64,000 nucleotides of DNA, taken from assembly GCA_965220655.1 (NCBI GenBank), contig CBDCQO010000012.1:368268-432267 (forward strand), in the 5' to 3' direction. The DNA comes from Dehalococcoidia bacterium (GTDB lineage: Bacteria; Chloroflexota; Dehalococcoidia; Lucifugimonadales; Australimonadaceae). Of the stretch, positions 16,743-46,150 are shown piece after piece. A program made the position numbers and the translations under genes. Numbering within the stretch: the stretch's first letter is position 1; each line of letters begins with the position of its first letter. Under the pieces are notes generated by a model that did not search any database, was not told the DNA's origin, and was given only the letters and a program-made list of their open reading frames with translations.

Positions 16743-16801
16743 GGCGTCTCCTTCTCTCAGCGCGAGTGGATGATACATCCGCATCGGGTGTGGGGTGGTC
16801 G

Positions 16802-16810
16802 TGGTAGAGT
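16802..16810 (+). promoter_or_regulatory. Extended -10 box (TGgTAGAGT), 7 nt upstream of a start codon
   Basis: TG at 16802-16803 and TAGAGT at 16805-16810. ATG at 16818 has no SD, giving leaderless geometry. Confidence 0.35.
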
Positions 16811-16817
16811 TTACGCG

Positions 16818-17213: not shown

Positions 17214-17302
17214 GCGCCAGACGCGATTGACGGCAGGGCGCGGATGATGCAATCTTCACCCGTTGGCAGGAAGAACGGTCTGGGTACTCAGGGAGGTGAA
17301 CG

Positions 17303-24089: not shown

Positions 24090-24127
24090 GGGCTTCCTCG
24101 CTCTGGTGGTCTGTGCGCGCTGGACGG

Positions 24128-24898: not shown

Positions 24899-24936
24899 GA
24901 GCGCTCCTCCCTCCCAGAGACCTTCGCTAACCCGTC

Positions 24937-26022: not shown

Positions 26023-26104
26023 GGTGTCGCCTCCTCCCGGTGGTGGCGCAAGCATAGCGGAGCGGGGGACAGGCGGGCGACCAAGGGGGCCAACACCCTT
26101 CGCC

Positions 26105-26133
26105 TTGACACTGTTCACACCCGCCCATGTAAG
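26105..26133 (+). promoter_or_regulatory. Weak candidate promoter for the thiolase/carboxylase operon (TTGACA-17-TGTAAG)
   Basis: Consensus -35 at 26105-26110. The -10 is poor. Confidence 0.25.
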
Positions 26134-26177
26134 GTTGCGCGCGTAGCCTGTCTGAGCGCCACGATGCGAGCGAGGCG

Positions 26178-27347
26178 ATGGCCACGAACCCCAAGGTTGC
26201 GATTGCAGGAGTCGGCGAGGCACGCGGCGGACGCGCCACCGGCAAGACGACGGTGCAGTTATACGCGGAAGCGTTCCTGGACCTGTTTGCCGACTGTCCC
26301 ATAGACCCGGCCTCCATCGACGGCGTGCTCACGTCCAGCCCCGACGCGGAGCCGCACCACATGTTCTCCACCTGGCTGGTCGAGTACCTCGGGCTTCGGC
26401 CCAGGTTCACGTCGGCTGTGCAGATGGGCGGAGCGACGCCGCACTCCAACATGGCGCTCGCCGCAGCGCTGGTCGAGTCGGGGCGCTGCAGGGCGGTGAT
26501 GGTGGCCGACGGCGATAACAGGGCGTCCAAGTTCTCGCGCCAGGACAAGGTGCAGGCGATGAGCTCGCAGGTCGGGCACCTGAGCAGCCTCGAACCGCCC
26601 CACGAGTTCGACGGGCCGTACGGGCCGACCGCCCCTGCGCTGTACGGGATGATGGCCACGCGGCACATGTACGAGTACGGCTCGACACCGGAGCAGTTCG
26701 CGCGCATCGCGGTCGCGTTCAGGGCGCACGGCGCGCTCAACGAGCGGGCGCAGCTCCGCAAACCCGTCACGGTGGACGACGTGCTTGCCAGCCCCGTTAT
26801 CGCATGGCCCCTGCACCGCGACGAGTGCGCGCTCATCTCCGACTGGGGCAGCGCCATCCTCGTGACGACGCCGGAGTACGCGAACACGCTCCGGCGCGAC
26901 CCCGCTTACCTGCTCGGCCTCGGGCAGGCGCACCAGGGGTACAACCCGTACCAAGCCCCCTCGATCACGTCGTTCCCCATCAGCGAGTCCGCGGATGAGG
27001 CGTTCGGCGCCGCGGGAATCAGGCGCGACGAGGTAGACGTGCTGGAGCTGTACGACTCGTTCACGAGCACAGCGATGGTGACGCTGGAGAACATGGGGTT
27101 CTGCGGCGCAGGCGAGGGAGGCGCGTTCGTCGAGGACGGGAACATCGACCTCGGTGGGAGCCTGCCGACGAACACGCACGGGGGACTGCTCTCGTACAAC
27201 GGCGGGCATGGGCACTTCATCGTGGAGGCGACGCGGCAGCTGCGCGGCGAGTGCGGCGAGCGGCAGGTGGCGAACGCGAAGATCGCGGTATCGCAGGGGA
27301 CGGCGGCGCTCGCGTCATCGTCCATCACGCTGGTGCTGGGGACATGA
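26178..27347 (+). CDS. Thiolase-like protein (SCP-x / non-specific lipid-transfer type thiolase)
   Basis: 389 aa. N-terminus KVAIAGVGE.., C-terminal NTHGGLLS.. and GHG motifs of the thiolase fold. Paired with a DUF35 gene. Confidence 0.8.
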   Translation: MATNPKVAIAGVGEARGGRATGKTTVQLYAEAFLDLFADCPIDPASIDGVLTSSPDAEPHHMFSTWLVEYLGLRPRFTSAVQMGGATPHSNMALAAALVESGRCRAVMVADGDNRASKFSRQDKVQAMSSQVGHLSSLEPPHEFDGPYGPTAPALYGMMATRHMYEYGSTPEQFARIAVAFRAHGALNERAQLRKPVTVDDVLASPVIAWPLHRDECALISDWGSAILVTTPEYANTLRRDPAYLLGLGQAHQGYNPYQAPSITSFPISESADEAFGAAGIRRDEVDVLELYDSFTSTAMVTLENMGFCGAGEGGAFVEDGNIDLGGSLPTNTHGGLLSYNGGHGHFIVEATRQLRGECGERQVANAKIAVSQGTAALASSSITLVLGT

Positions 27348-27742
27348 CCACGGAGCGGGTGAACACGGTTACTCAGCCGTACTGGGACGGCGTGGAGCAA
27401 GGGAAGCTCATGCTCCAGTACTGCTCCGCCTGCAACGCGTACCAGCACTACGCCCGTCCACTCTGCGCGAAGTGCCATGCCGCCGAACCGGAATGGCGCG
27501 AGGCGTCGGGCAACGCCGTGCTGTATTCGTACAGCGTCGTATACCGGGGCCCCAGCCCGGCGTTCCAGGCCATCGTCCCGTACGTGACCGCCATCGTGGA
27601 GCTGGAGGAGGGGCCGCGCATGTTCACGAATATCGTGGACGCTGAGCCCGAGTCGCTGCGCGTCGGGGAGCCGGTCCGCGTTGTATTCCGGGACGGACCC
27701 GAAGGGCTGCGGCTTCCCTATTTCACTCCGGCGGGGGGCTGA
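27344..27742 (+). CDS. DUF35 Zn-ribbon/OB-fold protein (thiolase partner subunit)
   Basis: YWDGVEQGKLMLQYCSACNAYQHYARPLCAKCH rubredoxin-like knuckle followed by an OB fold. ATGA overlap with the thiolase stop. Confidence 0.8.
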   Translation: MTTERVNTVTQPYWDGVEQGKLMLQYCSACNAYQHYARPLCAKCHAAEPEWREASGNAVLYSYSVVYRGPSPAFQAIVPYVTAIVELEEGPRMFTNIVDAEPESLRVGEPVRVVFRDGPEGLRLPYFTPAGG

Positions 27743-28086
27743 TGTTGCGCGTTCGGATCACCGAATACCTGGACATCGACCTGGAGCGGGAGCTCTGGTG
27801 CTGCAACCGGTGCGGCGGCGACCTGATCTCCGCCCGCGAGCCGTACAAGCGCGGCTGCCTGCTGCATGAGCGCGACCCGCGCGAGATACACCGGCCCATC
27901 AGCGATCACCCGGTGTTCAACTACTCGTTCGACCCGGACTGGGTCCGCATCGTCGAGTTCTACTGTCCGCACTGCGGGGTGATGGTGGAGAACGAGTACC
28001 TGCCGCCGGGACATCCGCTGACCAACGACATCCAGCCCGACATCGACGCGCTCAAACGCAAGCATGCCGGCGGAGGCGCGTCGTGA
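27742..28086 (+). CDS. Acetone/acetophenone carboxylase gamma-subunit family protein (small Zn-binding subunit)
   Basis: 114 aa. EYLDIDLERELWCCNRCGG..YKRGCLLHERDPREIH..IVEFYCPHCGVMVENEYLPPGHP matches my recollection of Acetone_carb_G. TGATG junction with DUF35. Confidence 0.75.
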   Translation: MLRVRITEYLDIDLERELWCCNRCGGDLISAREPYKRGCLLHERDPREIHRPISDHPVFNYSFDPDWVRIVEFYCPHCGVMVENEYLPPGHPLTNDIQPDIDALKRKHAGGGAS

Positions 28087-30212
28087 GCGCCCGGCTGGGA
28101 CTCGACATCGGAGGAACGTTCACGGACGCCGTCGGCGTTCTGAACGGCAACCTCGTCTGGGCGAAGGCGGAGACGACCCACCACGACCTGAAGGACTGTT
28201 TCATGGAGGCCGCCGCCCGCGCCGCCGAACGGCTGGGAGCCGACCTCGCCGACGTCGCCAGCGACGCCGAGGCGCTCATCTACTCGACGACCGTGGGAAC
28301 GAATACCCTGATCGAGCGGACGGGGCCGAAACTCGGCCTGCTGACGACGATGGGGTTCGAGGACACACTCAAGGTGGGGCGGTCGCGCAGCTGGGCGGAC
28401 GGGATGCCGCTGGAGGTGCGGTTCGCCAAGGGACGCGCCCGGAAACCGGAGCCGCTCATCCCGCGCGACGAGTTCACCGTAAGCCTGCGCGAACGCATCG
28501 ACAGCCGGGGGCAGGTGCTCATCCCGCTCGACGAGGACGAGGTGCGGGGACAGGTGCAGCGGCTCGTCGACCTCGGCGTGCGCGGGTTCGTCATCGTCCT
28601 GCTCAACTCGTTCATCAACCCGGAGCACGAGAACCGCGTCCGGGACCTGATCCACGAAGAGTACCCGGAGGTCTACCTGGGGCGGATGCCTGTCTTCCTG
28701 TCGCATGAGGTCTCGCCGCAGATGGGCGAGTACCGCCGCAGCCTGACGACCATCATCGACGCGTACCTGCGCGTGAATACCGAGGAGCACATCCTCGACA
28801 TCGGCAACGACCTGCTGGATATGGGCTATCACAGGCCGCTGTTCCTCGCGAAGTGCACCGGCGGCATCTCGTCGGTCTCGCGCACGCGCCCGGTCCACCT
28901 GCTCGGCAGCGGGCCCGTCGCCGGCGTGTTCGGCGCCCGCGCGCTCGCCGAGGCGTACGGCCTGCGCAACGTGCTGCTGACCGACATGGGCGGCACGAGT
29001 TTCGACGCGGGGCTGATCGTTGAGGCGCGGGACCGGCTGTACGAGTCCGACCCCGTGTTCGACCGGTGGCGGGTGCAAGTGCCGGTGATCGCGCACTGGT
29101 CGATCGGCGCAGGCGGCGGGAGCATCGCCTATATCGAAGACCAGAGATTGCACGTGGGGCCGCGCAGCGCGCGCTCGCGCCCCGGCCCGGCCTGCTACGG
29201 CAGGGGCGGCACGGAGCCCACCGTCACCGACGCCGACGTGGTGCTCGGCTACATAGACCCGGACTACTTCCTGGGCGGCCGGATCAAGCTCGACGCCGCG
29301 CTCGCCGCCGAGGCGGTGCGGATATGCGTCGCGGAGCCGCTCGGCATGACGGTCGATGAGGCAGCGTGGCATATCCGCCACCAGATAGACGGCATCATGG
29401 GGCAGGAGCTGTACATGCGCACGGCGCTCAACTCCGGCTCCGATCCGAGGGAGTTCACCGCGTTCGCCGTGGGCGGCGCGGGGCCGGTGCACGCGGCGGG
29501 CTACGCCGAGTTCGCCGATGTCCGGCGTATCGCGCTGCCGCCGTTCGCGGGCGCGTTCGGCGCGTTCGGCACGCTCTCCATGGACCTCGTGCAGACCTAC
29601 GAGAAGGGACGGAAAGTCGTCATCCGCATGCCGGGCAGCACCGAGTTCGAACCGGCTGCCGCCGACGTGCTCAACGGCGAGATCGAGGAGCTGCTGGTCA
29701 GCGCGCGCAGGGACATCGCGGAGGAGGGTCTCGACCCGGACGCGGTCTCGTTCATGCTGGAGTTGCAGATGAGCTACGGGATGCAGCGCCAGACGCTCGA
29801 CGTCCCGCACTCCGGCCTGCACGTCGACGGCGCGGCTGACCTCTCGGACCTTTTCGACCGCTTCCAGAGCGCATACGCCGACAGCTTCGGCGAAGGCTCG
29901 ACCTCGCCGGAGTCCGGCGCTGAGGTGCGGCTCGTGCGGCTCAACGTCATCGGCGCGTCGGAGAAGCTCTCGCTGCCGTCGTTCGAGGCTGCCTCATCCC
30001 CCGCGAGTCCCACCGGCTCGCGGCGCGTGCTCTGGGACCTGGAGCGGGGATGGGAGGAGACGCCGGTCTATCGCCTGGACGAACTCGGGCCGGGCGCCGC
30101 CATCGATGGGCCTGCGCTCATCGAGGCGGAGGACTCGGTGGGCGCCGCGCCGCGCGGGTGGAGTTTCCGGCTGGACGAACACCGCATGGGGTGGCTGGAG
30201 AAGCAGACGTGA
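28083..30212 (+). CDS. Hydantoinase A / oxoprolinase (HyuA) family subunit, copy 1
   Basis: 709 aa. LGLDIGGTFTD and LTDMGGTSFD ATPase motifs. GTGA overlap with the gamma gene. Confidence 0.85.
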   Translation: MSARLGLDIGGTFTDAVGVLNGNLVWAKAETTHHDLKDCFMEAAARAAERLGADLADVASDAEALIYSTTVGTNTLIERTGPKLGLLTTMGFEDTLKVGRSRSWADGMPLEVRFAKGRARKPEPLIPRDEFTVSLRERIDSRGQVLIPLDEDEVRGQVQRLVDLGVRGFVIVLLNSFINPEHENRVRDLIHEEYPEVYLGRMPVFLSHEVSPQMGEYRRSLTTIIDAYLRVNTEEHILDIGNDLLDMGYHRPLFLAKCTGGISSVSRTRPVHLLGSGPVAGVFGARALAEAYGLRNVLLTDMGGTSFDAGLIVEARDRLYESDPVFDRWRVQVPVIAHWSIGAGGGSIAYIEDQRLHVGPRSARSRPGPACYGRGGTEPTVTDADVVLGYIDPDYFLGGRIKLDAALAAEAVRICVAEPLGMTVDEAAWHIRHQIDGIMGQELYMRTALNSGSDPREFTAFAVGGAGPVHAAGYAEFADVRRIALPPFAGAFGAFGTLSMDLVQTYEKGRKVVIRMPGSTEFEPAAADVLNGEIEELLVSARRDIAEEGLDPDAVSFMLELQMSYGMQRQTLDVPHSGLHVDGAADLSDLFDRFQSAYADSFGEGSTSPESGAEVRLVRLNVIGASEKLSLPSFEAASSPASPTGSRRVLWDLERGWEETPVYRLDELGPGAAIDGPALIEAEDSVGAAPRGWSFRLDEHRMGWLEKQT

Positions 30213-32341
30213 CATCCCTCAAGGACCAGATCAAGCTGCACGAGGGGCTCGTGTACGACCGCCACGCCTACGGCAAGGGGCCGGGGTGGGACCCGGAGCT
30301 CATCGTGGAGAAGGCCGCTCCCCTGAGCCCGATCGAGCGGGAGGGCTACGACCTCCTGTCGGACGTGGAACTCGAAATCTTCTACCACAAGATGCTCACT
30401 ATCGTGGAGGAGGCGCGCGAGGTCTGGCAGAACCTCTCGATCTCCGACATCATCCTGGCGGGCGACATGTCCACCGCCGTCTTCACCCCCAGCGGCGATC
30501 TCGCCGTGGCGTCCACGGGCATCCACTTCCACGCGCTCCTCAACTACGCCCAGTCCAAGTTCATCCTGAAGTACTACAGGGACGACCCCACCGTGGGCCT
30601 GCGGGACGGCGACATCTTCTTCTTCAACAACCCGCTCGCGGGTTCCACACACGCGCCGGACATGTTCACGGCGATGCCGGTCTTCCACGAGGGCGAACTC
30701 GTGGCGTGGGCCGAGGTGGGAGGACACCAGGGCGACTGCGGCTCCGTCTCACCGGGCGGGTTCAACCCGTACGCCACGAGCCGGTTCGAAGAGGGCTTCC
30801 ACATGGCGGGAGTGAAGATCGGCGAGAACTTCCGCATACGGAAGGACATGCTGGACTACCTGTGCGGCTCCGTGCGCAACCCGTTCGTGTTCGCGGTCGA
30901 GTTGCGCTCGCGCGTCGCGACCTGCCTGCGGATGCGCGACCGCATCCTCCGCGAGGTCGAGCGCAGGGGCCCGGCCGCCGTGTCGGGCGGTCTGCGCCGG
31001 CTGATCGACCGTTCCAGTGAACTGGCGTCGGAGCGGCTGCGGCAGATCAACGACGGCGTCTACCGCTCCATCCTCTTCAACGACACCATCGGGGCCGAGA
31101 AGGGGCTGGTGCGGATACCGGTCACGGTCATCAAGGAAGGCGGCGAGATGACCATCCTCGTGCAGGGCGTCTCGCCGCCGAACGGCAAGGGGCCGGTGCA
31201 CGCGACGTGGCACCTCGTGCGCGCCTCGCAAGCGGTCTACCTGTTCGCGTACTTCTTCCGGGGGCTGATGCCGAACGTGGGGCTGTTCGAGCCGCTCACC
31301 TTCCTCATCGAGGGGCCGTCGGTGGCGAACTCGCCGGAGGACGTCGCCCACACGGAGGGCACGATCATCTCCGCGGCGGTGGTGCAGAGCTTCCACATCA
31401 TCGGCTCCAAGATGCTGTTCGACAGCCCGTTCCGGGAGAACGTTTCAGCACCCTTCTCGCGGAACATGGTGGCGCTCGTGTTCTACGGCTCCAACCTGTT
31501 CGGCTACCGCGCCACGGGCATCACGTCCACCGGCAACGGGGCGGGACAGGGCGCGCGTTTCGACGGCGACGGCGAGCACTCCACCGGCTTCTACTGGGCG
31601 TCGATGACCGACGCGGGCGAGGTGGAGGAGTTCGACGCGCGCTACCCGTTCACCATCATCGCCCGGGGTCTGCTCGGCACGGACTACCACGGCTTCGGCA
31701 TGTACCGCGGCGGCTCGGCGCTGATCGAGGTGAGCATGGCGTACCCGAACCCAGTCGTGATGACCTCCTGGGGGACGTCGGACGTCATCTCCCACAACCC
31801 CGGCCTGTTCGGGGGCTACTGGGGCCCGCCGAACCCGCGCCTGACCATCACGAAGAACGACGCGCTGAAACTCATGGCGGAGGGCGCACTTCCGGAACTC
31901 ACGCACCATTCGCTCGCGGCCGAGCGCCGGATCGGCGGCGACTACGCGTTCGAATCGTCCAGCGTCAACCCGAAGGAGTTCGAGATCGGCGACGTGTTCC
32001 TGTGCGATACCGGGTCGGGCGGCGGCTACGGGGACGTGCTGGAGCGCGACCCGGAAGCGGTGATGACGGACGTGCGGGAAGGCATGATCTCCGCGGACGT
32101 TGCGGGGCGCGTGTACAAGGTCGTCTACGACGAGGAGACGCTGCGGGTCGACCACGCAGCCACGGAAGCGTTGCGGAACGAGGAGCGGCAGGCGCGCATC
32201 GCACGCGGCAAGCGGTTCGACGACTTCATCGGGGGCTGGCTAGCGCAGAAACCGAAGGAGCACCTCCTCACCTACTACGGCGACTGGCCGGACCCGCGCG
32301 TCCCCGGCTACGACAAACCGTTCTGGGGAGAGCACGACTGA
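30209..32341 (+). CDS. Hydantoinase B / oxoprolinase (HyuB) family subunit
   Basis: About 710 aa from GTG 30209 (GTGA overlap with the HyuA stop). The track ORF starts 159 nt earlier, inside the HyuA gene. Confidence 0.8.
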   Translation: MTSLKDQIKLHEGLVYDRHAYGKGPGWDPELIVEKAAPLSPIEREGYDLLSDVELEIFYHKMLTIVEEAREVWQNLSISDIILAGDMSTAVFTPSGDLAVASTGIHFHALLNYAQSKFILKYYRDDPTVGLRDGDIFFFNNPLAGSTHAPDMFTAMPVFHEGELVAWAEVGGHQGDCGSVSPGGFNPYATSRFEEGFHMAGVKIGENFRIRKDMLDYLCGSVRNPFVFAVELRSRVATCLRMRDRILREVERRGPAAVSGGLRRLIDRSSELASERLRQINDGVYRSILFNDTIGAEKGLVRIPVTVIKEGGEMTILVQGVSPPNGKGPVHATWHLVRASQAVYLFAYFFRGLMPNVGLFEPLTFLIEGPSVANSPEDVAHTEGTIISAAVVQSFHIIGSKMLFDSPFRENVSAPFSRNMVALVFYGSNLFGYRATGITSTGNGAGQGARFDGDGEHSTGFYWASMTDAGEVEEFDARYPFTIIARGLLGTDYHGFGMYRGGSALIEVSMAYPNPVVMTSWGTSDVISHNPGLFGGYWGPPNPRLTITKNDALKLMAEGALPELTHHSLAAERRIGGDYAFESSSVNPKEFEIGDVFLCDTGSGGGYGDVLERDPEAVMTDVREGMISADVAGRVYKVVYDEETLRVDHAATEALRNEERQARIARGKRFDDFIGGWLAQKPKEHLLTYYGDWPDPRVPGYDKPFWGEHD

Positions 32342-34350
32342 TGTACACCATCGACCTCGACGTCGGTGGCACGTTCACCGACGGCTTCTTCTCGGACGGA
32401 CAGACCTACCGCACCGCGAAAGTGCCCACGACCGCGCACGACGTCCCCGCGTGCGTGCTGGAGTGCGTCGCGGCGGGCGCGGCGGCGTTCGGCACGGACA
32501 CCGCGGAACTGCTGCGCGAGGCGTCCGTGTTCCGGGTGGCGACGACGATCGGCACGAACATCATCGTGCAGGGGCGCGGCGCGAAGGCGGGGCTGCTCGT
32601 GAGCGCAGGCGCCGAGGAAGACCTCTACGGGGACGGTCCCGCCGGCGTCATCGGGCAGGGTTTCATCAAGCCGGAAATGATCACCGGCATCGGCGGGGCC
32701 ATGGACGAGACCGGCACCGAGACCGCGCCGGTGGACCCGGAGGAAGTGCTCGCCGCCGTCAGGGAACTGGTCCATCGGGGGGCGCGGATCATCGGCGTCT
32801 GCCTGCGCAACGCGTGGCGGAATGACGCCCACGAGGTCCGCGTGCGGGAGATCATCCACGAGCGGTACCCGGTGCACTACCTGCGCTCCGTCCCGCTGCA
32901 GCTGAGCACAGAGGTCTCACCCGTTTCCGACGACCACGCGCGGGCCAACTCGCTCATCGTCAACGAGATGCTCCACCGCGAGATGACGCGCAGCCTGTAC
33001 GACCTGGAGGACCGGCTGCGCGACGCGGGCTACCGCTGGCCGCTCCTCGTCACTCACGCGAGCGGAGGGTGCGCGCGCGTCGCGAAGACCGTCGCTGCGG
33101 AGACGTTGCAGTCCGGGCCCGCGGCGGCCGTGCTCGGGGCATGGCGCATCGCGCAGCTCACCGGCGCGGAGCACGTCGTCGCCGCGGACATGGGCGGCAC
33201 CAGCCTGGACGTGGCGTTCGCGTCCGCCGAGCAGCCGCCGTGGGACCCGCGTCCTACCGTGGAAGGGGTGCCGCTCGCCATCCCGATGCTGAGCGTCGAG
33301 TCCATCGGTGCGGGCGGGGGCAGCATCGCCCGCGTGGACGGAGACGGCACGCTCTCCGTGGGCCCTGACTCGGCGGGGGCATACCCCGGCCCCGCCTGTT
33401 ACGGCCAGGGCGGTGTCGAAGCGACCGTGACCGACGCGGACCTCATTCTTGGCTACATAGACCTCGGCCATCTCCTCGCGGGACGGATGCCGCTCGACCT
33501 CGCGGCGGCGCAAAGCGCGGTCACGGAGCGGGTCGCGACGCCATCCGGCGCATCGCTGGACGCCGCCGCGGCAACGGTGCGTGAGACGATCGACGGGGAG
33601 ATGGCGGAGGCCATACAGCACGGCATGCAGGAGCGCGGCCTCGACCCTGCGGGCGTCACCCTGCTGGCGTTCGGCGGCGCGGGGCCGCTGCACGCGGCTT
33701 CCATAGCGGAACGCGCGGGCATCCGGCGTGTGCTGGCGTTCCCGTTCGGCTCGGTGTTCAGCGCCTACGGGTCGAGCACGACGGACGTGATGCACCTCTA
33801 CCGCGACACGCATGGCACGCCTGCCGCAAGTCCCGGCCTCGCCGACGCCATCGAATCGGGGACGGAGCGCATGCGGAACGTCGCGGTCAAGGACATGCGC
33901 GGCGAGGGCTTCCGCTCCGATGAACTGGACTTCCAGACCGTGCTGGAGCTGTGGATGGGAGGCCGCCCCGCCCTGGTCTCCGCGACGAACGGCGACGGGC
34001 TGGCGGACGCGGTGCAGCGAGTGACGAACGGCGTCGAGGCCGTTCACGGCGTCGCACTCGAAGCCGCGTGGACGGTCGTGTCAGCAGGGGTGCCGCACTG
34101 GTCGCCGGAACGCGTGAACGGTTTCGGCGTGCACGAGGCCGCCGCATCGGGCTCGCGGGAGGTCACGTGGTCGGCGGAGCAAGGGCCGGTCGCTACTCCC
34201 ACGCACGAACTCACGAGTCTCTTTCCCGGAGCGGTCGTGGAAGGCCCCGCGGTGATAGACGCAGCGGATACCGGTTACGTCGTCCCTGCTGGCTGGCGGC
34301 TCGCCGTCGACGGCTACGGGTTCCTCGAGATGACGGACGCGCGGCCATGA
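32341..34350 (+). CDS. Hydantoinase A (HyuA) family subunit, copy 2 (alpha-prime-like)
   Basis: Start MYTIDLDVGGTFTD at ATG 32341 (TGATG junction). AADMGGTSLD second motif. 669 aa. The track ORF (31207..) is an out-of-gene upstream extension. Confidence 0.85.
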   Translation: MYTIDLDVGGTFTDGFFSDGQTYRTAKVPTTAHDVPACVLECVAAGAAAFGTDTAELLREASVFRVATTIGTNIIVQGRGAKAGLLVSAGAEEDLYGDGPAGVIGQGFIKPEMITGIGGAMDETGTETAPVDPEEVLAAVRELVHRGARIIGVCLRNAWRNDAHEVRVREIIHERYPVHYLRSVPLQLSTEVSPVSDDHARANSLIVNEMLHREMTRSLYDLEDRLRDAGYRWPLLVTHASGGCARVAKTVAAETLQSGPAAAVLGAWRIAQLTGAEHVVAADMGGTSLDVAFASAEQPPWDPRPTVEGVPLAIPMLSVESIGAGGGSIARVDGDGTLSVGPDSAGAYPGPACYGQGGVEATVTDADLILGYIDLGHLLAGRMPLDLAAAQSAVTERVATPSGASLDAAAATVRETIDGEMAEAIQHGMQERGLDPAGVTLLAFGGAGPLHAASIAERAGIRRVLAFPFGSVFSAYGSSTTDVMHLYRDTHGTPAASPGLADAIESGTERMRNVAVKDMRGEGFRSDELDFQTVLELWMGGRPALVSATNGDGLADAVQRVTNGVEAVHGVALEAAWTVVSAGVPHWSPERVNGFGVHEAAASGSREVTWSAEQGPVATPTHELTSLFPGAVVEGPAVIDAADTGYVVPAGWRLAVDGYGFLEMTDARP

Positions 34351-35546
34351 CCAGCAACACCGGACAGCGGCCACTGGAAGGCTTCACCATCGTCGAGATG
34401 GGCAACTTCATCGCGGGCCCGTATGCCGGGATGCTGCTGGCAGACCTCGGGGCGGAGGTCATCAAGGTGGAAGAGGTGACGTCCGGCGACCCGTTCCGCG
34501 CCTGGGGCAAGGGCCTGTACAGCCCAGCGTTCTGCGCGTTCAACCGGGGTAAGAAGAGCCTCACGCTCGACGTCCGCCAGGAGCGGGGCAGGGAAGTGTT
34601 GCTCCGCCTCGCCGACGAGGCCGACGCGCTCATCGAGAACTTCCGGCCCGGCGTCATGGCGCGGCTCGGCGCGAACTACGAGACCGTCTCCGCACGCAAT
34701 CCGCGCATCGTCTACTGCTCGCTGTCTGGGTTCGGACAGAGCGGGCCGTACCGCGACAGGCCGAGCTACGACACGGTTGGGCAGGCGATGGGCGGGCTGC
34801 TCGCGCTGCTCACCGACTCGGACGACCCGCGCCCCAGGGGCCCCGCGCTCGCGGACTCGCTCACCGGCCTCTTCGGCGCGTTCGGCGTCCTGTCGGCGCT
34901 GATGGCGCGCGAACGCACCGGCGTCGGCCAGAAGGTCGAGACGTCGCAGATGGAGTCCGTCGCTGCGTTCGTCGGCGAGACGCTGACGTTCTACGAGGCG
35001 CAGGGCATGGTGTCCAACGCGTGGACGAGGCCGAGACTCGCGCAGGTGTACGGGTTCGATACCGCCGACGGCAAGCAACTGGCCATCCACCTGTCGTCGC
35101 CGCCCAAGTTCTGGGAGGGGCTCACCGACGCCGTGGGGCGTCCCGACCTGCGGAACGACCCGCGTTTCGTCGACCGCAACGCGCGCGCCGAGCACTACAA
35201 CGAGCTGTACGAGGAGCTCGTGCCGCTCTTCAAGCAGCGCACGCGCGACGAGTGGCTCGCCCTCTTCGAGCAGCACGACGTGCCGGGCGCTCCGGCGTAC
35301 CGGGTCAACGAACTCCTCGAAGACCCGCAGTTCGCGCACCAGGGCATCCGCATCGAGCACTCCCACCCGGAGGGCGACTCCGTCACGGCGAAGAACCCGC
35401 TCAACCTGCTCGGCACGCCGCTCACGTACGACGTGCCGCCGCCCGGCCTCGGCGAGCACAACGAGGAGGTGCTCTCGCGTCTCGGTTTCACCGGGGACGA
35501 GGTTGCGGCGCTCAGGCGGGAAGGCGTCATCGGGGAACGCGGCTGA
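34347..35546 (+). CDS. Family III CoA-transferase (CaiB/BaiF/Frc type)
   Basis: Start MTSNTGQRPLEGFTIVEMGNFIAGPYAGMLLADLGAEVIKVE. ENFRPG motif. ATGA overlap with the previous stop. Confidence 0.85.
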   Translation: MTSNTGQRPLEGFTIVEMGNFIAGPYAGMLLADLGAEVIKVEEVTSGDPFRAWGKGLYSPAFCAFNRGKKSLTLDVRQERGREVLLRLADEADALIENFRPGVMARLGANYETVSARNPRIVYCSLSGFGQSGPYRDRPSYDTVGQAMGGLLALLTDSDDPRPRGPALADSLTGLFGAFGVLSALMARERTGVGQKVETSQMESVAAFVGETLTFYEAQGMVSNAWTRPRLAQVYGFDTADGKQLAIHLSSPPKFWEGLTDAVGRPDLRNDPRFVDRNARAEHYNELYEELVPLFKQRTRDEWLALFEQHDVPGAPAYRVNELLEDPQFAHQGIRIEHSHPEGDSVTAKNPLNLLGTPLTYDVPPPGLGEHNEEVLSRLGFTGDEVAALRREGVIGERG

Positions 35547-35556
35547 GCCCGGCGTC

Positions 35557-36906
35557 ATGGACGCGCTGACCGAGCATCTCAGCTCCTACGTTGCAGGGCT
35601 GGCCTACGACGACATTCCGGCGGACGCTGTGCACGGGATGAAGGTGCGGCTGGTCGACTCCATCGGGTGCGCCATCGGCGGGCAGGACGGAGAGCCGGTG
35701 GCAGTTGCTCGGGCGTTGGCGCGGGAAACCCAGGCCGCGACTCCGGCGCGGGTGTGGTTCACCGGCGAGCGCACTACGCCGGAACTCGCCGCGTTCGCCA
35801 ACGAACTGATGGTCCGCTACCTCGATTTCAACGACACGTACTTCGCAATGGACGGGGGGCACCCGAGCGACACGATCGCAGCAACGCTGACGTTGTCGGA
35901 TGCACTCGGGCTGAGCGGGCGCGACGCGCTCGTTGCGATGGTCGCGGGATACGAGGTGTTCTGCGGGCTGGGGGAAGTGCAGAAGCCTTCGACGAAGTTC
36001 ATCGACCATTCGCTGCACGTTGCGATCGGCTCGGCGGCGGGAGCGTCGAAGGCGCTTGGGCTGGATGTGCACCGCACAGCACACGCCATCTCCATCGCGC
36101 TCACGTCGAACCTGGGGCTCCGTATCTCCCGTGACGGGCGGCTGTCGATGTGGAAGGCGGGGTCGGCCGCCAACTCCGCACGGGCAGGGGTATTCTCGGC
36201 AAGGCTCGCCGAGCGGGGGATGACGGGCCCGGACGAGCCCTTCTACGCCGACAGCGGGCTCGCGGGGATGCTCGGCGCGCGGACGCCGCTGCCCGCGCTC
36301 GGCGGAGCGTCGAACCGGTTCCACACGAGCCTCAGCAGCATCAAGGCGTTCCCCGCGCAGTTCAACGCTCAGGCCGCGATATGGGCGGCGCTCGGGCTGC
36401 GCGAGCGGCTCGGAGGTGCGCTGCCGGACAGGATCGTGGTATCCAGCTACCGCCAGGCGGTCACGAGCTCCGCTGATCCTGACAAGTGGCGCGTGCACGA
36501 CCGTGAGACTGCCGATCACTCGATGCCCTACGTGGTCGCGGCGGCGCTTCTCGACGGCGAGGTCACCGTGCGGCAGTTCACGGACGAGCGCATCGCCGAC
36601 CCTGCCGTGCACGAGCTGATGGTACGCGTCGAAGTGGCTGAGGATCCGGAGATGACCGCCCTCTTTCCGCGCGCGCAGGCGGCGCGCATCGAGGCTGTCG
36701 CGGGCGGCGAGACGTACGTGGTCGAGATCGAGAACTCGAAGGGGAACGCCGCGAACCCACTCTCGGATGGGGAGGTCGAGGCCAAGTTCCGAGCGCTCGC
36801 AGAGGGCGTCATGCCGCGGGAGCAGGCCGATTCCCTACTATCGCGGTTGTGGAGGTTCGAAGAGGAGCCCTCGGCGGCGGGAGTCATCGACGCGATGGCC
36901 CTGTAG
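35557..36906 (+). CDS. MmgE/PrpD family protein (2-methylcitrate dehydratase superfamily)
   Basis: Start MDALTEHLSSYVAGLAYDDIPADAV (typical family N-terminus). 449 aa. Lies 10 nt after the CoA-transferase stop. Confidence 0.8.
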   Translation: MDALTEHLSSYVAGLAYDDIPADAVHGMKVRLVDSIGCAIGGQDGEPVAVARALARETQAATPARVWFTGERTTPELAAFANELMVRYLDFNDTYFAMDGGHPSDTIAATLTLSDALGLSGRDALVAMVAGYEVFCGLGEVQKPSTKFIDHSLHVAIGSAAGASKALGLDVHRTAHAISIALTSNLGLRISRDGRLSMWKAGSAANSARAGVFSARLAERGMTGPDEPFYADSGLAGMLGARTPLPALGGASNRFHTSLSSIKAFPAQFNAQAAIWAALGLRERLGGALPDRIVVSSYRQAVTSSADPDKWRVHDRETADHSMPYVVAAALLDGEVTVRQFTDERIADPAVHELMVRVEVAEDPEMTALFPRAQAARIEAVAGGETYVVEIENSKGNAANPLSDGEVEAKFRALAEGVMPREQADSLLSRLWRFEEEPSAAGVIDAMAL

Positions 36907-36912: not shown

Positions 36913-37668
36913 CTACGGCTCGTCGGGGTCGGCTCGCTGCACCTTGCCCAGGAACACTTCCGTCAGGATGTTCGTCTCGCGGACAGATGCCGGGGTCCCC
37001 TCGAAGACGATGCGCCCCGTGTCCAGGATGTAGGCGCGGTCGACGATGTCCAGGACGCCCTTGATGTTGTGCTCCACGACCATGATCGTTGTGCCCAACC
37101 GCTCGCTGATGAGCGCCACCGTCTGGAAGACCTCTTTCACGATGTTGGGGGCCAGCCCCAGGGTAGGCTCATCCAGCAGCAGCAACTCAGGGTTGGCCAT
37201 CAGGCCCCGCCCAAGCGCCAGCATCTGCTGCTGGCCGCCGGACATCTGGCTCGCGAGGGCGCGCCGCTTCTGGTGCAGAACGGGGAAGAGTTCCATGACC
37301 GAGTCCATGCGGCGCCGCACCTCGGGCCGGTCCCGGAGGTACGGGCACCCCATCTCCAGGTTCTCCTCTATGGTGAGGTGCGTGAAGAGCCGCCTGCCCT
37401 GCGGCACGAACGCGATGCCGTGCTTCACGATCTCGTGCGTGGCGGACGTCAAGCGTTCTCCTCGCCAGTACACCTGCCCGGCGACCACGGGCGCGAGGCC
37501 CATCAGCCCCTTCAAGACGGTGGACTTCCCGGCGCCGTTGGGCCCCATCACCGCCACCACCTCGCCCTTGCGAACGCCGAGGCACGCGTCCTCGAGAGCG
37601 CTGACCGCCCCGTAGCGCACGGAGACGTTGACCATCTCGAGGATGAACGATTCGTTCAGACTTGCCAT
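36913..37668 (-). CDS. ABC transporter ATP-binding protein (LivF type)
   Basis: GPNGAGKST Walker A, LSGGQQQMLALGR signature, LLLDEP Walker B. Confidence 0.85.
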   Translation of the reverse strand: MASLNESFILEMVNVSVRYGAVSALEDACLGVRKGEVVAVMGPNGAGKSTVLKGLMGLAPVVAGQVYWRGERLTSATHEIVKHGIAFVPQGRRLFTHLTIEENLEMGCPYLRDRPEVRRRMDSVMELFPVLHQKRRALASQMSGGQQQMLALGRGLMANPELLLLDEPTLGLAPNIVKEVFQTVALISERLGTTIMVVEHNIKGVLDIVDRAYILDTGRIVFEGTPASVRETNILTEVFLGKVQRADPDEP

Positions 37669-37674
37669 GCCCCG

Positions 37675-38436
37675 CTAGACCCCCAGATACGCTTCGATCA
37701 CTTCAGGCTGAGCCAGGACCTCCTCCGCGTCTCCCTCGGTGAGGAGCTTCCCGCTGTCCATCACGATCAGGTGGTCGGACAACTCCCGCACGATATCCAT
37801 GTTGTGCGAGATGAACAGGATGGTGCGCCCTTCGTTCCGCAGCTGCCGCACGATCCCTTTCACGCGCTCGAGCATCTGCGGGAAGAGTCCGGCGAACGGC
37901 TCGTCGAAGAGGTACGTATCAACGTTGAGGGCCATCGCCCGGCCTATCTCCAGCAGCTTCCGCTGACCGTAGGAAAGGTCCATCGCCAGGGAGCGCCGTT
38001 TCTCCCACATGCCCACGCTCCGCAGTATCTCCTCCGTCCGCTCTCGCTGGCCGGACTTCCCACGTTCGAGGAGCGCAGGCAGGAGGCGCCGCTCCGTCAG
38101 CACCACCATGATGTTGTCCCAGACGCTGATCTGGTCGAACAGACGAACGTCCTGGAACGTGCGGGTGATGCCCAGGCCGGGCGTCTCGTGAGGCTTCACC
38201 GCCCTGAGACGCACCCCGTCGACGACGACCACTCCTTCATCCAGCGGCAGCATCCCGCTCAGGAGGTTGATGAGCGTGGACTTGCCGGAACCGTTGGGGC
38301 CGACGACGCAGGTAATCTTGCCGCGGGGTATCGCTATGGAGAGCCCGTCAACCGCATGCACGCCGCCGAAGTGTTTCGCAACCTCGATCGTCTCCAGGGC
38401 GAAGCGCTCGCCGTCTCTCTCTGTGCGGGTGCTCAC
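37675..38436 (-). CDS. ABC transporter ATP-binding protein (LivG type)
   Basis: GPNGSGKSTL Walker A, LSYGQRKLLEIGRA signature, LFDEPFAG Walker B. 4-nt overlap with the permease stop. Confidence 0.85.
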   Translation of the reverse strand: MSTRTERDGERFALETIEVAKHFGGVHAVDGLSIAIPRGKITCVVGPNGSGKSTLINLLSGMLPLDEGVVVVDGVRLRAVKPHETPGLGITRTFQDVRLFDQISVWDNIMVVLTERRLLPALLERGKSGQRERTEEILRSVGMWEKRRSLAMDLSYGQRKLLEIGRAMALNVDTYLFDEPFAGLFPQMLERVKGIVRQLRNEGRTILFISHNMDIVRELSDHLIVMDSGKLLTEGDAEEVLAQPEVIEAYLGV

Positions 38437-39488
38437 AGCCTGTACCTCCCGAGGAGCCCCTGAGGTCTGAACAGCATCAGCAGGACCAGCAGCACTCCCA
38501 GGATGACCTGGCGCGCCTGACCGACGTACTCGTCAGGCAGGAACGGCAGGAACCGCATACCTTCTTCGAGCAGCACGAACGCCATCGCTCCGAGGATCGA
38601 GCCCCATATCGTGGCCAGGCCGCCTAGGATCACGATGGACACGAGCAGGATCGACTCCAGCAGGATGAACGAGTTGGGGTCGATGAACGTCGTCCAACTG
38701 GCGAACAGCCCGCCCGCGGCCCCGGCCATCATGGCTGAGATCACCCAGACGGTCAGCTTGAAGTGCGTTACCTGATAACCGAAGACCTCGGTCGCCCGCT
38801 CGTCCTCTCGTATCGCGGTAAGCACTCGTCCGAATGAGGAACTCACGATGAACCAGGAGATGAGGACGACGACCGCCAGGAACAGGAGGGCGAGGATGAG
38901 GAACGCCACTTCGCTGACGAAGGCCACGCCGCCTATCTCAGGCTTGGCAATCTCGTGGATGCCGAACGCTCCTCTCGTCAGCGCCCGTGAGTTCAGGAAA
39001 ACGTTGAAGCAGATGACCGCGAAACCGAAAGAGACCAGCACGAAGATGTCGTCCCTGAACCTGTTGAACACGATGCCTACCGCTATGGCAGTCAGCCCCG
39101 CGAGGACGATGCCGACAGGCAACGCGGCAAAGAACGGCCATCCGAACGTGGGGATGGCCTCTGTGCGCAATTGTTCGTACTGTGCGTTCGAGGTGAGGAT
39201 GGCCACGGCGTAGGCGCCGATGCCAAAGAAGCCGATGTGACCGACCGACAACAGCCCCGTGAACCCCACCACGAGGTTGAGACTGACCGCCAGGATCGCC
39301 CAGATGGCGAAGACGGTCCCCAGCGTGATGGCGAACCCGGACCCCTGCCATATCGCGAACACGACAGCCCACGTGATGACGACGAGGTTGGCCCACAGTT
39401 CCAGGTTGCCCCTCGCCAGCCGCGTGAACGCACCCGGCCCGCGCGCCGCTTTCACGAGGTTGCCAACTCCGCCGGAGTCCGTGGACAT
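38433..39488 (-). CDS. Branched-chain-amino-acid-type ABC permease (LivM type)
   Basis: Start taken at ATG 39488 (MSTDSGG), 5 nt after the LivH stop. The track ORF extends into the LivH gene. Confidence 0.75.
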   Translation of the reverse strand: MSTDSGGVGNLVKAARGPGAFTRLARGNLELWANLVVITWAVVFAIWQGSGFAITLGTVFAIWAILAVSLNLVVGFTGLLSVGHIGFFGIGAYAVAILTSNAQYEQLRTEAIPTFGWPFFAALPVGIVLAGLTAIAVGIVFNRFRDDIFVLVSFGFAVICFNVFLNSRALTRGAFGIHEIAKPEIGGVAFVSEVAFLILALLFLAVVVLISWFIVSSSFGRVLTAIREDERATEVFGYQVTHFKLTVWVISAMMAGAAGGLFASWTTFIDPNSFILLESILLVSIVILGGLATIWGSILGAMAFVLLEEGMRFLPFLPDEYVGQARQVILGVLLVLLMLFRPQGLLGRYRL

Positions 39489-39492
39489 AGCC

Positions 39493-40848: not shown

Positions 40849-40859
40849 TGAGGAATCTC

Positions 40860-40888
40860 AGCCCCCGCGACCGTGGCCGGCGGGGGCT
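40860..40888 (-). promoter_or_regulatory. Intercistronic stem-loop between the binding-protein and permease genes
   Basis: AGCCCCCGC / GCGGGGGCT 9-bp GC stem with an 11-nt loop in the 53-nt gap. No U-tract. Confidence 0.4.
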
Positions 40889-40901
40889 CAGACGATGCCT
40901 C

Positions 40902-42071: not shown

Positions 42072-42202
42072 CACCCCTCCCTCCGGAGCCGGTAGTTGTC
42101 TACAACCTCTCACGGCGTGAGTGGTTCCCTCCGATCTGCCGTGCGGGCAGTATCCCCTACGCGAATCTCAAGCCGCAAGGCATTCCGGGGGGCCTTGAAC
42201 CT

Positions 42203-44932: not shown

Positions 44933-44999
44933 CTCTGCGCCGCACTCGCGGCACGCACGAGTTGTCTGGCCGTGAGCATCGGGTTGAAGGAGGAAAGCC

Positions 45000-45512: not shown

Positions 45513-45550
45513 CCCCTACCCTTTGAAGATTCGTTGAGCAGGAGGACTCA

Positions 45551-46126: not shown

Positions 46127-46150
46127 GCGTAAGGTCCACAGGAGGTAATC

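Follow-up and report, generated by a model that had tools for sequence, protein, structure and literature searches.

What pathway is encoded where the subunits of a putative ketone carboxylase are combined with a CoA-transferase, a thiolase-fold protein and a PrpD-like protein? Such a combination lies in a contig of a Dehalococcoidia bacterium (CBDCQO010000012.1), of which a stretch of 64,000 nucleotides, hereafter the window, was analysed; the host belongs to the marine SAR202 Chloroflexi and is of an aerobic type. A preliminary description had read the genes as an eight-gene operon for ketone carboxylation, CoA activation and thiolysis, and had not recognised the combination as characterised. 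We likewise found no characterised example of it in the literature searched.

An ORF check revealed eight co-directional, translationally coupled ORFs on the + strand at positions 26178-36906, encoding a thiolase-fold protein, a DUF35 protein, carboxylase gamma, alpha (HyuA), beta (HyuB) and alpha' (HyuA'), a family III CoA-transferase and a PrpD-like protein, in this order. All eight domain assignments were backed by Pfam (E-values 1e-24 to 1e-113). Seven start/stop overlaps of the ATGA, GTGA or TGATG type were counted at consecutive junctions, and the PrpD start lies 10 nt past the CoA-transferase stop. The whole block was found again in 10 other SAR202/Dehalococcoidia genomes (L006-L014 and L018) with protein identities of 85-98%, and at an eleventh locus, L015, the contig ends within the beta gene. 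These results confirmed the proposed operon, and the block is a real conserved unit rather than a chance arrangement. The intergenic region 26023..26177, located between a divergent Zn-alcohol dehydrogenase gene (− strand) and the operon (+ strand), contains a TTGACA hexamer and is predicted as the likely promoter region of the operon.

The four carboxylase subunits were compared with solved structures and NCBIfam models. Gamma (27742..28086, +; 114 aa; Pfam Acetone_carb_G, E 8.7e-32) is of the short Apc type and matched the acetophenone carboxylase gamma 5l9w_C with 137 bits and 57% identity, compared with 35 bits for the acetone carboxylase gamma. Alpha (28083..30212, +; 709 aa) scored 526 bits against Apc chain 5l9w_B and 336 bits against Acx, beta (30209..32341, +; 710 aa) scored 343 bits against 5l9w_A, 133 bits against Acx and 110 bits against caprolactamase, and alpha' (32341..34350, +; 669 aa) scored 360-373 bits against the Apc alpha-type chains and at most 258 bits against other structures. 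The top NCBIfam matches of gamma, alpha, beta and alpha' were ApcB, ApcC, ApcD and ApcA, respectively, with alpha' closer to ApcA (432 bits) than to ApcC (382 bits). All these scores fell far under the Apc orthologue cut-offs, for example 560 bits for alpha against ApcC and 370 bits for beta against ApcD, each with a cut-off of 1500. The motif check bore out the ATPase motifs previously noticed in both HyuA copies (DIGGTFTD and DVGGTFTD, both of the form DxGGTxTD, and DMGGTS in each) and the Cys-rich nature of the small gamma, whose four Cys form two CxxC pairs. The alpha-specific fingerprint RERIDSRG is present in the 709-aa HyuA and absent from alpha'. Weidenweber et al. (2017, PMC5214803) proposed three marks for annotating carboxylases, all of which the operon genes display: a gene for gamma, a further HyuA copy, and R/KERiDsxG restricted to alpha.

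The closest system is thus represented by ApcABCDE of Aromatoleum aromaticum EbN1 (PDB 5L9W, PMC5214803), which supplied the best solved-structure match for each subunit, as the proposed acetophenone-type composition had implied. In both enzymes the core is made of alpha, alpha', beta and a short gamma with four Cys, and both alpha-type subunits carry ATP motifs but only one of them R/KERiDsxG; both are encoded with a CoA-activating enzyme, in EbN1 the benzoylacetate-CoA ligase Bal; and the gene orders, A-B-C-D-(E) there and B-C-D-A here, are circularly related. On the other side, the operon has a CoA-transferase instead of a ligase, the thiolase-fold/DUF35 pair and the PrpD-like gene are additions, and the EbN1 host is a denitrifying betaproteobacterium rather than a marine SAR202 Chloroflexi. 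The epsilon subunit, essential for the Aromatoleum enzyme (PMC5214803) and present in most relatives, was not detected in the window with a profile HMM of 30 epsilon homologues (best E 0.07), in line with the first reading of the locus. Acetone carboxylase AcxABC (PDB 5M45, 5SVB), which belongs to the same superfamily, carboxylates a ketone with ATP and also has a gamma subunit, is more distant, with a single alpha-type subunit, a longer gamma (168 aa) and much lower scores. Of the seven proposed acetophenone-pocket residues, one is kept in alpha and six are changed. Taken together, the Apc-best matches, the scores far under the orthologue cut-offs, the altered pocket and the missing epsilon gene identify the four subunits, at the level of sequence, as an Apc-type carboxylase for a ketone other than acetophenone, in which alpha is presumed to be the ketone kinase and alpha' the bicarbonate kinase. 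To our knowledge, the Aromatoleum enzyme is the only Apc-type enzyme whose activity is known.

The thiolase-fold protein (26178..27347, +; 389 aa; Pfam Thiolase_C_1, E 1.9e-45) was found to be devoid of both thiolase catalytic cysteines. The nucleophile position, aligned with the Cys of the true thiolase 7yvy and with that of 9vbo, is occupied by Gly85 (QMGGATP), and the motif YDSF (from Y292) stands in for HDCF, so that the acid/base Cys is replaced by Ser294. Gly instead of the nucleophilic Cys was observed in 44/44 carboxylase-linked copies and 118/118 close homologues. No alternative Cys was conserved specifically among the carboxylase-linked copies, and the two widely conserved ones, Cys217 and Cys309, occur in aldolase relatives too. 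The best PDB matches were 4u4e, 9myr (CtSal) and 6ok1 (TcLtp2). The first, a "thiolase" entry matched with 255 bits and about 42% identity, shares GG at the nucleophile position and the YDSF motif; no functional description of it was found, so that it says nothing about function. Among functionally characterised proteins, the nearest are two retro-aldolases of steroid side-chain degradation, Sal-Shy(DUF35) from Comamonas testosteroni (PDB 9MYR) and Ltp2-ChsH2(DUF35) from Thermomonospora curvata (PDB 6OK1), which share the thiolase fold, the Gly at the nucleophile position, the base Tyr of YDxF and a zinc-ribbon DUF35 partner. Residue mapping to CtSal showed that Tyr292 corresponds to the catalytic-base Tyr of Sal and Ltp2, whereas the catalytic acids of both known aldolase types are absent (Sal Cys304 is Ser294 and Ltp2 Tyr344 is Gly); the C304S variant of CtSal is inactive. 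Identity to Sal and Ltp2 is about 31-32%, and the operon differs from these systems in having no hydratase and in its neighbours, a ketone carboxylase and a CoA-transferase.

The DUF35 protein (27344..27742, +; 132 aa; Pfam zf-ChsH2 2e-10, OB_ChsH2_C 6e-24) is small and stands alone, not fused to a MaoC hydratase as in the steroid systems, and consists of a CxxC...CxxC zinc ribbon (CSAC, CAKC) and an OB fold. Its gene overlaps the thiolase-fold gene by ATGA, and it is the partner of that protein. The thiolase fold and DUF35 partner of the suggested SCP-x-type thiolase stood, with the correction that it lacks both catalytic cysteines. In CtSal, Gly at the nucleophile position rules out thiolysis (PMC12329534). 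The Gly in place of the nucleophilic Cys, YDSF in place of HDCF and the retro-aldolase relatives leave canonical thiolysis by the pair unsupported, and point to a predicted C-C lyase, akin to the Sal and Ltp2 aldolases, that works without thiolysis. Since the YDxF/HDxx motif varies among the carboxylase-linked copies (YDSF, YDCF, YDDY, HDGF and HDAC), one chemistry common to all of them is not assured. Homologues in other contexts adjoin enoyl-CoA hydratases (L085-L087), as hydratase/aldolase systems do; here the carboxylase and the CoA-transferase would fill the place of the substrate-supplying hydratase.

The family III CoA-transferase (34347..35546, +; 399 aa) matched Pfam CoA_transf_3 over its full length (E 4.8e-113), and its Asp170, in ALADSLTG, is invariant across 26 carboxylase-linked homologues. 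Carboxylase loci from Chloroflexi, Actinomycetota, Acidimicrobiia, Proteobacteria, Binataceae and Bacillota were grouped into 24 lineages at 80% beta identity. A CoA-transferase adjoins the carboxylase cluster in 12/24 lineages and is missing from the other 12, and an AMP-forming ligase adjoins it in 6/24. Because one or the other enzyme is found beside related clusters in many lineages, the suggested CoA activation of the carboxylation product is plausible, and the CoA-transferase is predicted to convert the beta-keto acid into its CoA thioester. The thiolase-fold/DUF35 pair accompanies the carboxylase in 7/24 lineages and is lacking in 17/24. Four of these seven hold the pair and a CoA-activating enzyme in one operon, namely the window clade, L002, Rubrobacter marinus (L026) and Acidimicrobiia sponge symbionts (L065-L084), to whose loci L003 is similar. 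The order thiolase-like gene, DUF35, gamma, alpha was met again around P0128, a 61%-identical homologue.

The PrpD-like protein (35557..36906, +; 449 aa), with both Pfam domains of the MmgE/PrpD family, lies at about the same distance from cis-aconitate decarboxylase (108 bits), PrpD (89 bits) and IDS epimerase (86 bits). Comparison of the eight-gene block across genomes, as had been suggested, placed this gene next to the carboxylase only in the SAR202 clade loci (L006-L014 and L018), and it is a clade-specific accessory outside the conserved module. Upstream, genes for a Zn-alcohol dehydrogenase (24937-26022), a dienelactone hydrolase (24128-24940) and an SDR (23349-24110), all on the − strand with Pfam matches and with NCBIfam matches that are only generic, are transcribed divergently from the operon. 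They may supply the ketone through secondary-alcohol oxidation or include a ketoreductase, a link that is weak because their relative position varies among the clade genomes. Downstream and convergent with the operon, a Liv-type ABC transporter identified by Pfam (36913..42113, −; two ATPases, two permeases and a Peripla_BP_6 binding protein) is kept beside it in L006-L014 and L018. The window as a whole is full of paralogous hydrolases and, like other SAR202 genomes, rich in hydrolases and dehydrogenases.

We propose, at roughly even chances, that the operon is a catabolic module acting on a ketone other than acetophenone in three steps. In the first, the gamma/alpha/beta/alpha' enzyme, with two ASKHA kinase sites recognised by family, would phosphorylate the ketone, in its enol form, on alpha and bicarbonate on alpha', and join the two into a beta-keto acid. 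In the second, the CoA-transferase would form the CoA thioester, as its conserved neighbourhood suggests, a role that an AMP-forming ligase has in other lineages and in Aromatoleum. In the third and least certain step, the thiolase-fold/DUF35 pair might cut a C-C bond of the CoA ester and release acetyl-CoA. Since the catalytic cysteines are missing, this step would have to use chemistry other than thiolysis and a covalent Cys-acyl mechanism; because the Sal/Ltp2 base Tyr is kept and Gly occupies the nucleophile position, aldolase-like fragmentation of a tetrahedral species seems likely, the candidates being a 3-hydroxyacyl-CoA after ketoreduction, or a hydrate or CoA adduct of the 3-oxo group. 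The substrate may be provided by the alcohol dehydrogenases nearby and by the ABC transporter. Several points speak against the scheme: the operon has no conserved ketoreductase or hydratase gene, the epsilon subunit is missing, the acid residue of both known aldolase types is lost, the YDxF/HDxx motif varies, no Apc-type enzyme but that of Aromatoleum has a known activity, and many lineages have the carboxylase without a CoA-transferase (12/24) or without the thiolase-fold pair (17/24). Of the carboxylation-thiolysis pathway first suggested, the carboxylation and CoA-activation steps are thus retained and thiolysis as the final step is not.

Other readings of the locus were weighed against this scheme. 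That HyuA and HyuB form an ATP-dependent lactamase, hydantoinase or oxoprolinase, or that the eight genes are mere neighbours in a paralogue-rich region, would agree with the Pfam family names (hydantoinase/oxoprolinase), the Apc equivalog cut-offs not reached and the many paralogous hydrolases of the window; but gamma and a second alpha are missing from all known hydrolase members (PMC5214803), all subunits resemble Apc far more than they do caprolactamase or N-methylhydantoinase, the genes are all linked by start/stop overlaps and their association is kept across phyla, which makes this reading very improbable. A true thiolase converting a beta-ketoacyl-CoA into acyl-CoA and acetyl-CoA has somewhat more in its favour. 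BbsAB and the archaeal thiolase/DUF35 complexes are detectable homologues that likewise pair a thiolase-fold subunit with a stand-alone DUF35 zinc finger for acyl-CoA C-C bond chemistry, the net reaction suits a module in which no reductase is conserved, and CoA attacking the 3-oxo group directly in an aldolase-like site could conceivably give the same products. However, those complexes, described as true thiolases, matched more weakly (116 and 99 bits, with BbsB aligned over its C-terminal half only), the nucleophilic Cys present in 7yvy is lost here and in every copy surveyed, with no substitute Cys conserved specifically in the carboxylase-linked copies, and the literature precludes thiolysis for such proteins (PMC12329534), so that thiolysis is improbable.

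The order of the steps is not derivable from sequence, and a reversed order, although clearly less probable than the proposed scheme, is the strongest of its rivals. The thiolase-fold/DUF35 pair would then be a retro-aldolase that makes the ketone. From a 3-hydroxy-3-substituted acyl-CoA it would release a CoA-free ketone together with acetyl- or propionyl-CoA, much as Ltp2 yields a 17-keto steroid; through the carboxylase and CoA-transferase the ketone would go back into CoA-dependent beta-oxidation, and a housekeeping thiolase would finish. Besides the retro-aldolase relatives and the retained Tyr292, this order accounts for the CoA-free ketone and the need for CoA re-attachment, and it is consistent with the repeated occurrence of the three-part module across lineages, the beta-oxidation genes close by in L003 (ECH, a true thiolase and an AMP-forming ligase) and the wealth of hydrolases and dehydrogenases in the window. 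Against it, the protein lacks the acid residue that the known aldolases use in catalysis, and neither the window operon nor the Acidimicrobiia operons contain a hydratase for a 3-hydroxyacyl-CoA, although one adjoins homologues in other contexts. If the reversed order is true, the operon would represent a bypass for branched or alicyclic carbon skeletons.

All eight plus-strand open reading frames of the operon (26178-36906) were found where the preliminary description had placed them, and each assignment was backed by Pfam. The thiolase-fold protein matched Thiolase_C_1 (1.9e-45), and its DUF35 partner comprises a zinc ribbon, with the CxxC...CxxC pattern present, and an OB fold (zf-ChsH2, OB_ChsH2_C). 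Downstream lie the gamma subunit (Acetone_carb_G, 8.7e-32), two HyuA proteins with all three domains complete on either side of HyuB (Hydantoinase_B, 7.6e-75), a full-length family III CoA-transferase (CoA_transf_3, 4.8e-113, model positions 1-366 of 366) and a PrpD-like protein with both MmgE/PrpD domains. The ATPase motifs DxGGTxTD and DMGGTS, read earlier in both HyuA copies, were present in both. ATGA, GTGA or TGATG overlaps occur at seven successive gene junctions of the operon, and the PrpD-like gene starts 10 nt past the stop of the CoA-transferase gene. The comparative genomics that had been suggested for the eight-gene block revealed that the whole block is kept in 10 sister genomes at 85-98% protein identity, with PrpD limited to this clade; in an eleventh sister locus, L015, the block is truncated inside the beta gene. 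The window has a G+C content of about 66%, and its beta gene is 95-99% identical to genes of metagenome-assembled SAR202/Dehalococcoidia genomes, which include several complete chromosomes and some sponge-derived assemblies. The remaining gene content of the window is consistent with SAR202/Dehalococcoidia genomes and also includes four Amidohydro_2, two dienelactone hydrolase and several SDR and Zn-dehydrogenase genes. Exact-sequence look-ups of the window beta subunit and of the database protein P0016 returned no match.

The relationship of the carboxylase subunits to known enzymes was judged by bit scores against PDB chains and by NCBIfam models. The genes of gamma, alpha, beta and alpha' are adjacent and overlapping (27742-34350) and were typed by Pfam and NCBIfam, the best NCBIfam models being ApcB for gamma, ApcC for the 709-aa HyuA (alpha), ApcD for HyuB (beta) and ApcA for the 669-aa HyuA (alpha'). 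By bit score, every subunit was nearer to the acetophenone carboxylase (Apc) of Aromatoleum aromaticum (5L9W) than to acetone carboxylase, caprolactamase or N-methylhydantoinase (alpha, 526 bits against 336 for the next best; alpha', 360-373 against 258; beta, 343 against 133; gamma, 137 against 35). The 114-aa gamma subunit carries CNRC and CPHC, its Cys pairs align with those of Apc gamma, and it shares 57% identity with that protein. Hallmarks of the Apc branch are the presence of two alpha-type subunits, a short gamma whose four Cys make up the Zn site, and an R/KERiDsxG motif in alpha but not in alpha' (Weidenweber et al., PMC5214803). All three features were found in the window carboxylase, with RERIDSRG confined to the 709-aa copy (aa 136-143), i.e., in alpha and not in alpha'. 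The acetophenone-type composition put forward in the preliminary description was thus borne out by scores, models and branch features alike, and so was its gamma subunit by the Acetone_carb_G domain, the sequence identity and the four aligned Cys. In gene order, the window set (gamma, alpha, beta, alpha') corresponds to apcA-B-C-D-(E) of Aromatoleum after circular permutation.

The same comparison revealed scores far under the NCBIfam equivalog cut-offs (ApcB, 156 versus 250 bits; ApcC, 561 versus 1500; ApcD, 370 versus 1500; ApcA, 432 versus 1250). Only one of the seven residues at the acetophenone pocket of Apc alpha, which is a tentative assignment in the source paper (PMC5214803), is kept, namely Pro285; the others are changed (L81 to T, F281 to L, N282 to G, I333 to F, Q344 to A, and T345 to H). 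Therefore, an acetophenone carboxylase proper, i.e., an ApcABCD orthologue, was ruled out. The gamma family is small, with 241 clusters at 50% identity at E <= 1e-3 and 106 at E <= 1e-10. Three database proteins of about 790-830 aa (P0257, P0288 and P0376) have the gamma domain at their C-terminal end, which suggests gamma-large subunit fusions in some lineages. Four related loci from other genomes (L021, L039, L042 and L055) contain two Apc-type beta genes each, and several contigs contain up to three paralogous beta genes, a sign that the carboxylase family has expanded by paralogy in some genomes.

Most related loci possess a 200-310-aa gene between beta and alpha'. It matched the ApcE model of NCBIfam (E 1e-9 to 1e-12), had a weak match to the URO-D fold, and was therefore regarded as a homologue of the epsilon subunit. 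Of 84 related loci, 52 have such an ApcE-like gene; it was absent from the window clade and from locus L002. In line with the earlier remark that no epsilon gene was in view, both tblastn (E > 0.29) and a profile HMM (best E 0.07) failed to find epsilon in the operon or the 64-kb window, and it was not found within +/-10 kb of the operon in the sister genomes. Epsilon is essential for the activity of the A. aromaticum enzyme, and some Apc-like operons are devoid of it (PMC5214803). Replacement of epsilon by the thiolase-fold/DUF35 pair was rejected because the pair co-occurs with epsilon in Acidimicrobiia and at L026, L003 and L042, and replacement by PrpD was rejected because PrpD is confined to one clade. 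Two further Dehalococcoidia loci with 74-75% beta identity (L016:14376-15209 and L017) have an ApcE-like gene after alpha' instead of between beta and alpha'. Neither the thiolase-fold pair nor a CoA-transferase adjoins these two clusters, and a gluconolactonase-like (SGL) gene follows.

For analysis of the gene neighborhoods, 81 loci with beta homologues were clustered by beta identity (80%), which gave 24 lineages, and families were counted within 8 kb of beta. Alpha and alpha' were detected in 23 of the 24 lineages, epsilon in 15 (the separate Acidimicrobiia epsilon cluster not counted), family III CoA-transferase in 12, the thiolase-fold protein in seven, AMP-forming ligase, DUF35 and SDR in six each, and PrpD in one. 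A single operon encodes the carboxylase, the thiolase-fold/DUF35 pair and a CoA-activating enzyme in L002, L003, Rubrobacter marinus (L026), the Acidimicrobiia sponge symbionts (L065-L084) and the window clade itself; in L003 and these Acidimicrobiia a ligase occupies the place of the transferase. This non-orthologous replacement provides good circumstantial evidence that the acid produced by the carboxylase becomes a CoA ester, as is the case for Apc and the benzoylacetate-CoA ligase Bal. The neighborhoods also lend circumstantial support to the earlier proposal that a CoA-transferase takes over the role of the ligase. Asp170 of the CoA-transferase, which we take to correspond to the catalytic Asp169 of formyl-CoA transferase, is invariant in 26 carboxylase-linked homologues. 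In the actinomycetotal locus L005, biotin-dependent carboxylase genes lie on both sides of the Apc-like cluster: a biotin carboxylase, a PYC_OADA-type carboxyltransferase and two biotin-lipoyl proteins on one flank (L005:116-5537), and a further biotin-lipoyl and PYC_OADA pair on the other (L005:21417-22133).

The preliminary description had assigned the first two genes of the operon to an SCP-x-type thiolase and its DUF35 partner. The fold and the partner were confirmed, but both catalytic Cys residues are missing. The best matches among solved structures were 4U4E, for which no functional description was found, CtSal (9MYR), a bile-acid aldolase of Comamonas, and the aldolase TcLtp2 (6OK1), all ahead of BbsB and the archaeal thiolases. 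In alignments with a true thiolase (7YVY, acetyl-CoA acetyltransferase) and with 9VBO, the window protein has Gly85 at the position of their nucleophilic Cys, and the HDCF loop of SCP2 thiolases reads YDSF (aa 292-295), so that the acid/base Cys is gone. Mapping of the CtSal residues reported in PMC12329534, with a numbering offset validated at 11 of 11 residues, showed that Gly89 of CtSal, at the thiolase nucleophile position, corresponds to Gly85, that its catalytic base Tyr302 (Tyr294 in TcLtp2) corresponds to Tyr292, and that its catalytic acid Cys304 corresponds to Ser294. A Gly at the nucleophile position makes thiolysis impossible, and the C304S variant of CtSal is inactive (PMC12329534). 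With Gly85, and with YDSF in place of HDCF, the canonical thiolytic cleavage proposed earlier is therefore not supported. The window protein shares the Gly and the base Tyr of YDxF with the steroid side-chain retro-aldolases, whereas their catalytic acid is missing; the acid of TcLtp2, Tyr344, aligns with a Gly. Unlike those enzymes, it has no adjoining or fused enoyl-CoA hydratase.

This feature is uniform in the family. Among the carboxylase-linked copies, GG was found at the nucleophile site in 44 of 44, with loops of YDSF, YDCF, YDDY, HDGF or HDAC, and Gly together with YD[SCAP]F was present in 118 of 118 full-length close homologues from a large protein database. Wherever members of this large Gly/YDxF family are annotated as 'thiolase', the label is probably incorrect. 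Cys217 and Cys309 were considered as alternative nucleophiles and rejected; they are conserved without being specific to carboxylase-linked copies, Cys217 being also present in 4U4E and TcLtp2, and Cys309 in 4U4E, CtSal and TcLtp2. In addition, a lone 712-aa Apc-type beta gene that lacks neighboring alpha, alpha' and gamma genes was observed in Alphaproteobacteria including Defluviicoccus sponge symbionts (L004, L048-L064), near a thiolase-fold/DUF35 pair with an HDGF motif. L004 also has genes for an aldehyde dehydrogenase and an FAD monooxygenase directly alongside, and both families turn up again in some of L048-L064. An ordinary HyuA is located on the other strand of these loci, in several of them paired with a hydantoinase-type HyuB.

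The PrpD-like protein, whose role the first description left unexplained, missed both PrpD equivalog cut-offs (165 bits versus 950, and 96 bits versus 458) and is about equidistant from cis-aconitate decarboxylase, PrpD and IDS epimerase. Its sequence supports membership of the MmgE/PrpD superfamily and nothing narrower. PrpD as a conserved pathway step was rejected, since in L001, a 93%-identical relative, and in L005/L024 the CoA-transferase gene is followed by an Amidohydro_2 gene instead (L001:6339-7331; L005:16161-17015); the PrpD-like gene is an add-on confined to this clade. Hydratases and decarboxylases that act on unsaturated or carboxylated acids occur in the MmgE/PrpD and Amidohydro_2 families alike, and the exchange may represent a non-orthologous replacement.

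The firm part of the pathway consists of the family memberships and the missing residues. On this basis, the predicted carboxylase would convert a ketone to a beta-keto acid, and the predicted CoA-transferase, with its invariant Asp170, would convert this acid to its CoA ester. With less certainty, the thiolase-fold/DUF35 pair may then cleave a C-C bond of the CoA ester in an aldolase-like, not a thiolytic, manner. Speculatively, its substrate might be a 3-hydroxyacyl-CoA formed by reduction (SDR and Zn-dehydrogenase genes lie divergently upstream), a gem-diol of the 3-oxo group, which would yield an acid and acetyl-CoA, or a CoA adduct of the 3-oxo group, which would give the same products as thiolysis. 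No aldehyde dehydrogenase, which would back an aldehyde-forming aldolase, was present in the window, and the annotated flanking genes of the Acidimicrobiia operons include no reductase or hydratase.

The main rival to this order is the reverse one, in which the pair would make the ketone from a 3-hydroxy-3-substituted acyl-CoA, and the carboxylase and the transferase would return this ketone to beta-oxidation. Ltp2, which makes a 17-keto steroid, is a precedent for such a reaction. Homologues outside carboxylase contexts (L085-L087) adjoin hydratase genes of the crotonase or MaoC type as well as additional DUF35 and thiolase genes, which is the hydratase/aldolase arrangement of steroid side-chain cleavage; the enzyme that makes the substrate of the pair is thus encoded beside it in other contexts. 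However, no hydratase was found in the operon or elsewhere in the annotated 64-kb window, nor in the self-contained Acidimicrobiia operons, and its place is taken by the carboxylase and the CoA-activating enzyme. We therefore prefer to place the pair downstream of the carboxylase. A joint reading, which we put forward tentatively and consider rather unlikely to hold as a whole, is that the Apc-type carboxylase, a CoA-activating enzyme and the cysteine-less thiolase-fold/DUF35 lyase form a widespread uncharacterized module of ketone catabolism in SAR202, Acidimicrobiia and other sponge symbionts, and Rubrobacter, with an undescribed C-C cleavage by the lyase and with the SAR202 version working without epsilon. 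The lyase of this module might fragment a 3-oxoacyl-CoA, as its hydrate or as a CoA adduct, in an aldolase-like reaction, or it might generate the ketone from branched or alicyclic acyl-CoAs.

As hints to the substrate, the NCBIfam matches of the alcohol dehydrogenase, SDR, dienelactone hydrolase, HsaD/BphD-like alpha/beta hydrolase, Rieske oxygenase and Liv-type transporter binding protein in the window were generic or very weak. Many of the related loci belong to sponge-symbiont genomes (PMC11706023), which may hint at a ketone derived from the host or from dissolved organic matter. Elsewhere in the window, the gene set at 46909-49986, with an acyl-CoA dehydrogenase before a second pair of Zn-dehydrogenase (48172-49203) and dienelactone hydrolase (49204-49986), mirrors the ADH/DLH pair (24128-26022) divergent from the operon. 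Five alpha/beta-hydrolase paralogues, one on the plus strand (10368-11288) and four in tandem on the minus strand (12578-16300), are accompanied by Amidohydro_2 genes (8004-9284 and 11306-12508) and an SDR gene (15951-17255), and the stretch 10368-16300 resembles the paralogue expansions that are typical of SAR202. Three tandem EamA-family transporters (1079-3831) are followed by three MFS transporters (3659-8109), and three consecutive plus-strand ORFs at 44988-46891 (about 175, 200 and 253 aa) score well in coding statistics but gave no Pfam match.

To our knowledge, the A. aromaticum enzyme is the only Apc-type carboxylase that has been studied biochemically, and we know of no assigned substrates for the rest of this diverse branch. 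Apc-like operons of unassigned substrate, some containing epsilon and some lacking it, had been pointed out in 2017 (PMC5214803). Our literature search retrieved no later characterized Apc-like enzyme and nothing on this gene combination or on Apc in SAR202 or sponge symbionts, in keeping with the earlier impression that the combination had no characterized example. A paper on marine Dehalococcoidia mentions acetone-carboxylase-like genes and nothing further on this subject. New here are the SAR202 variant without epsilon in the operon and the 64-kb window, the link to CoA activation across phyla, and the uniform lack of the cysteines in the linked 'thiolase'. SAR202 is an abundant ocean and sponge-associated lineage and a proposed degrader of recalcitrant organic matter, for which we know of almost no experimentally verified pathways. 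The operon poses the questions of which ketone is used, whether an Apc-type core can operate without epsilon, and how a cysteine-less thiolase-fold protein acts on the product, and it does so in a compact, conserved and expressible gene set.
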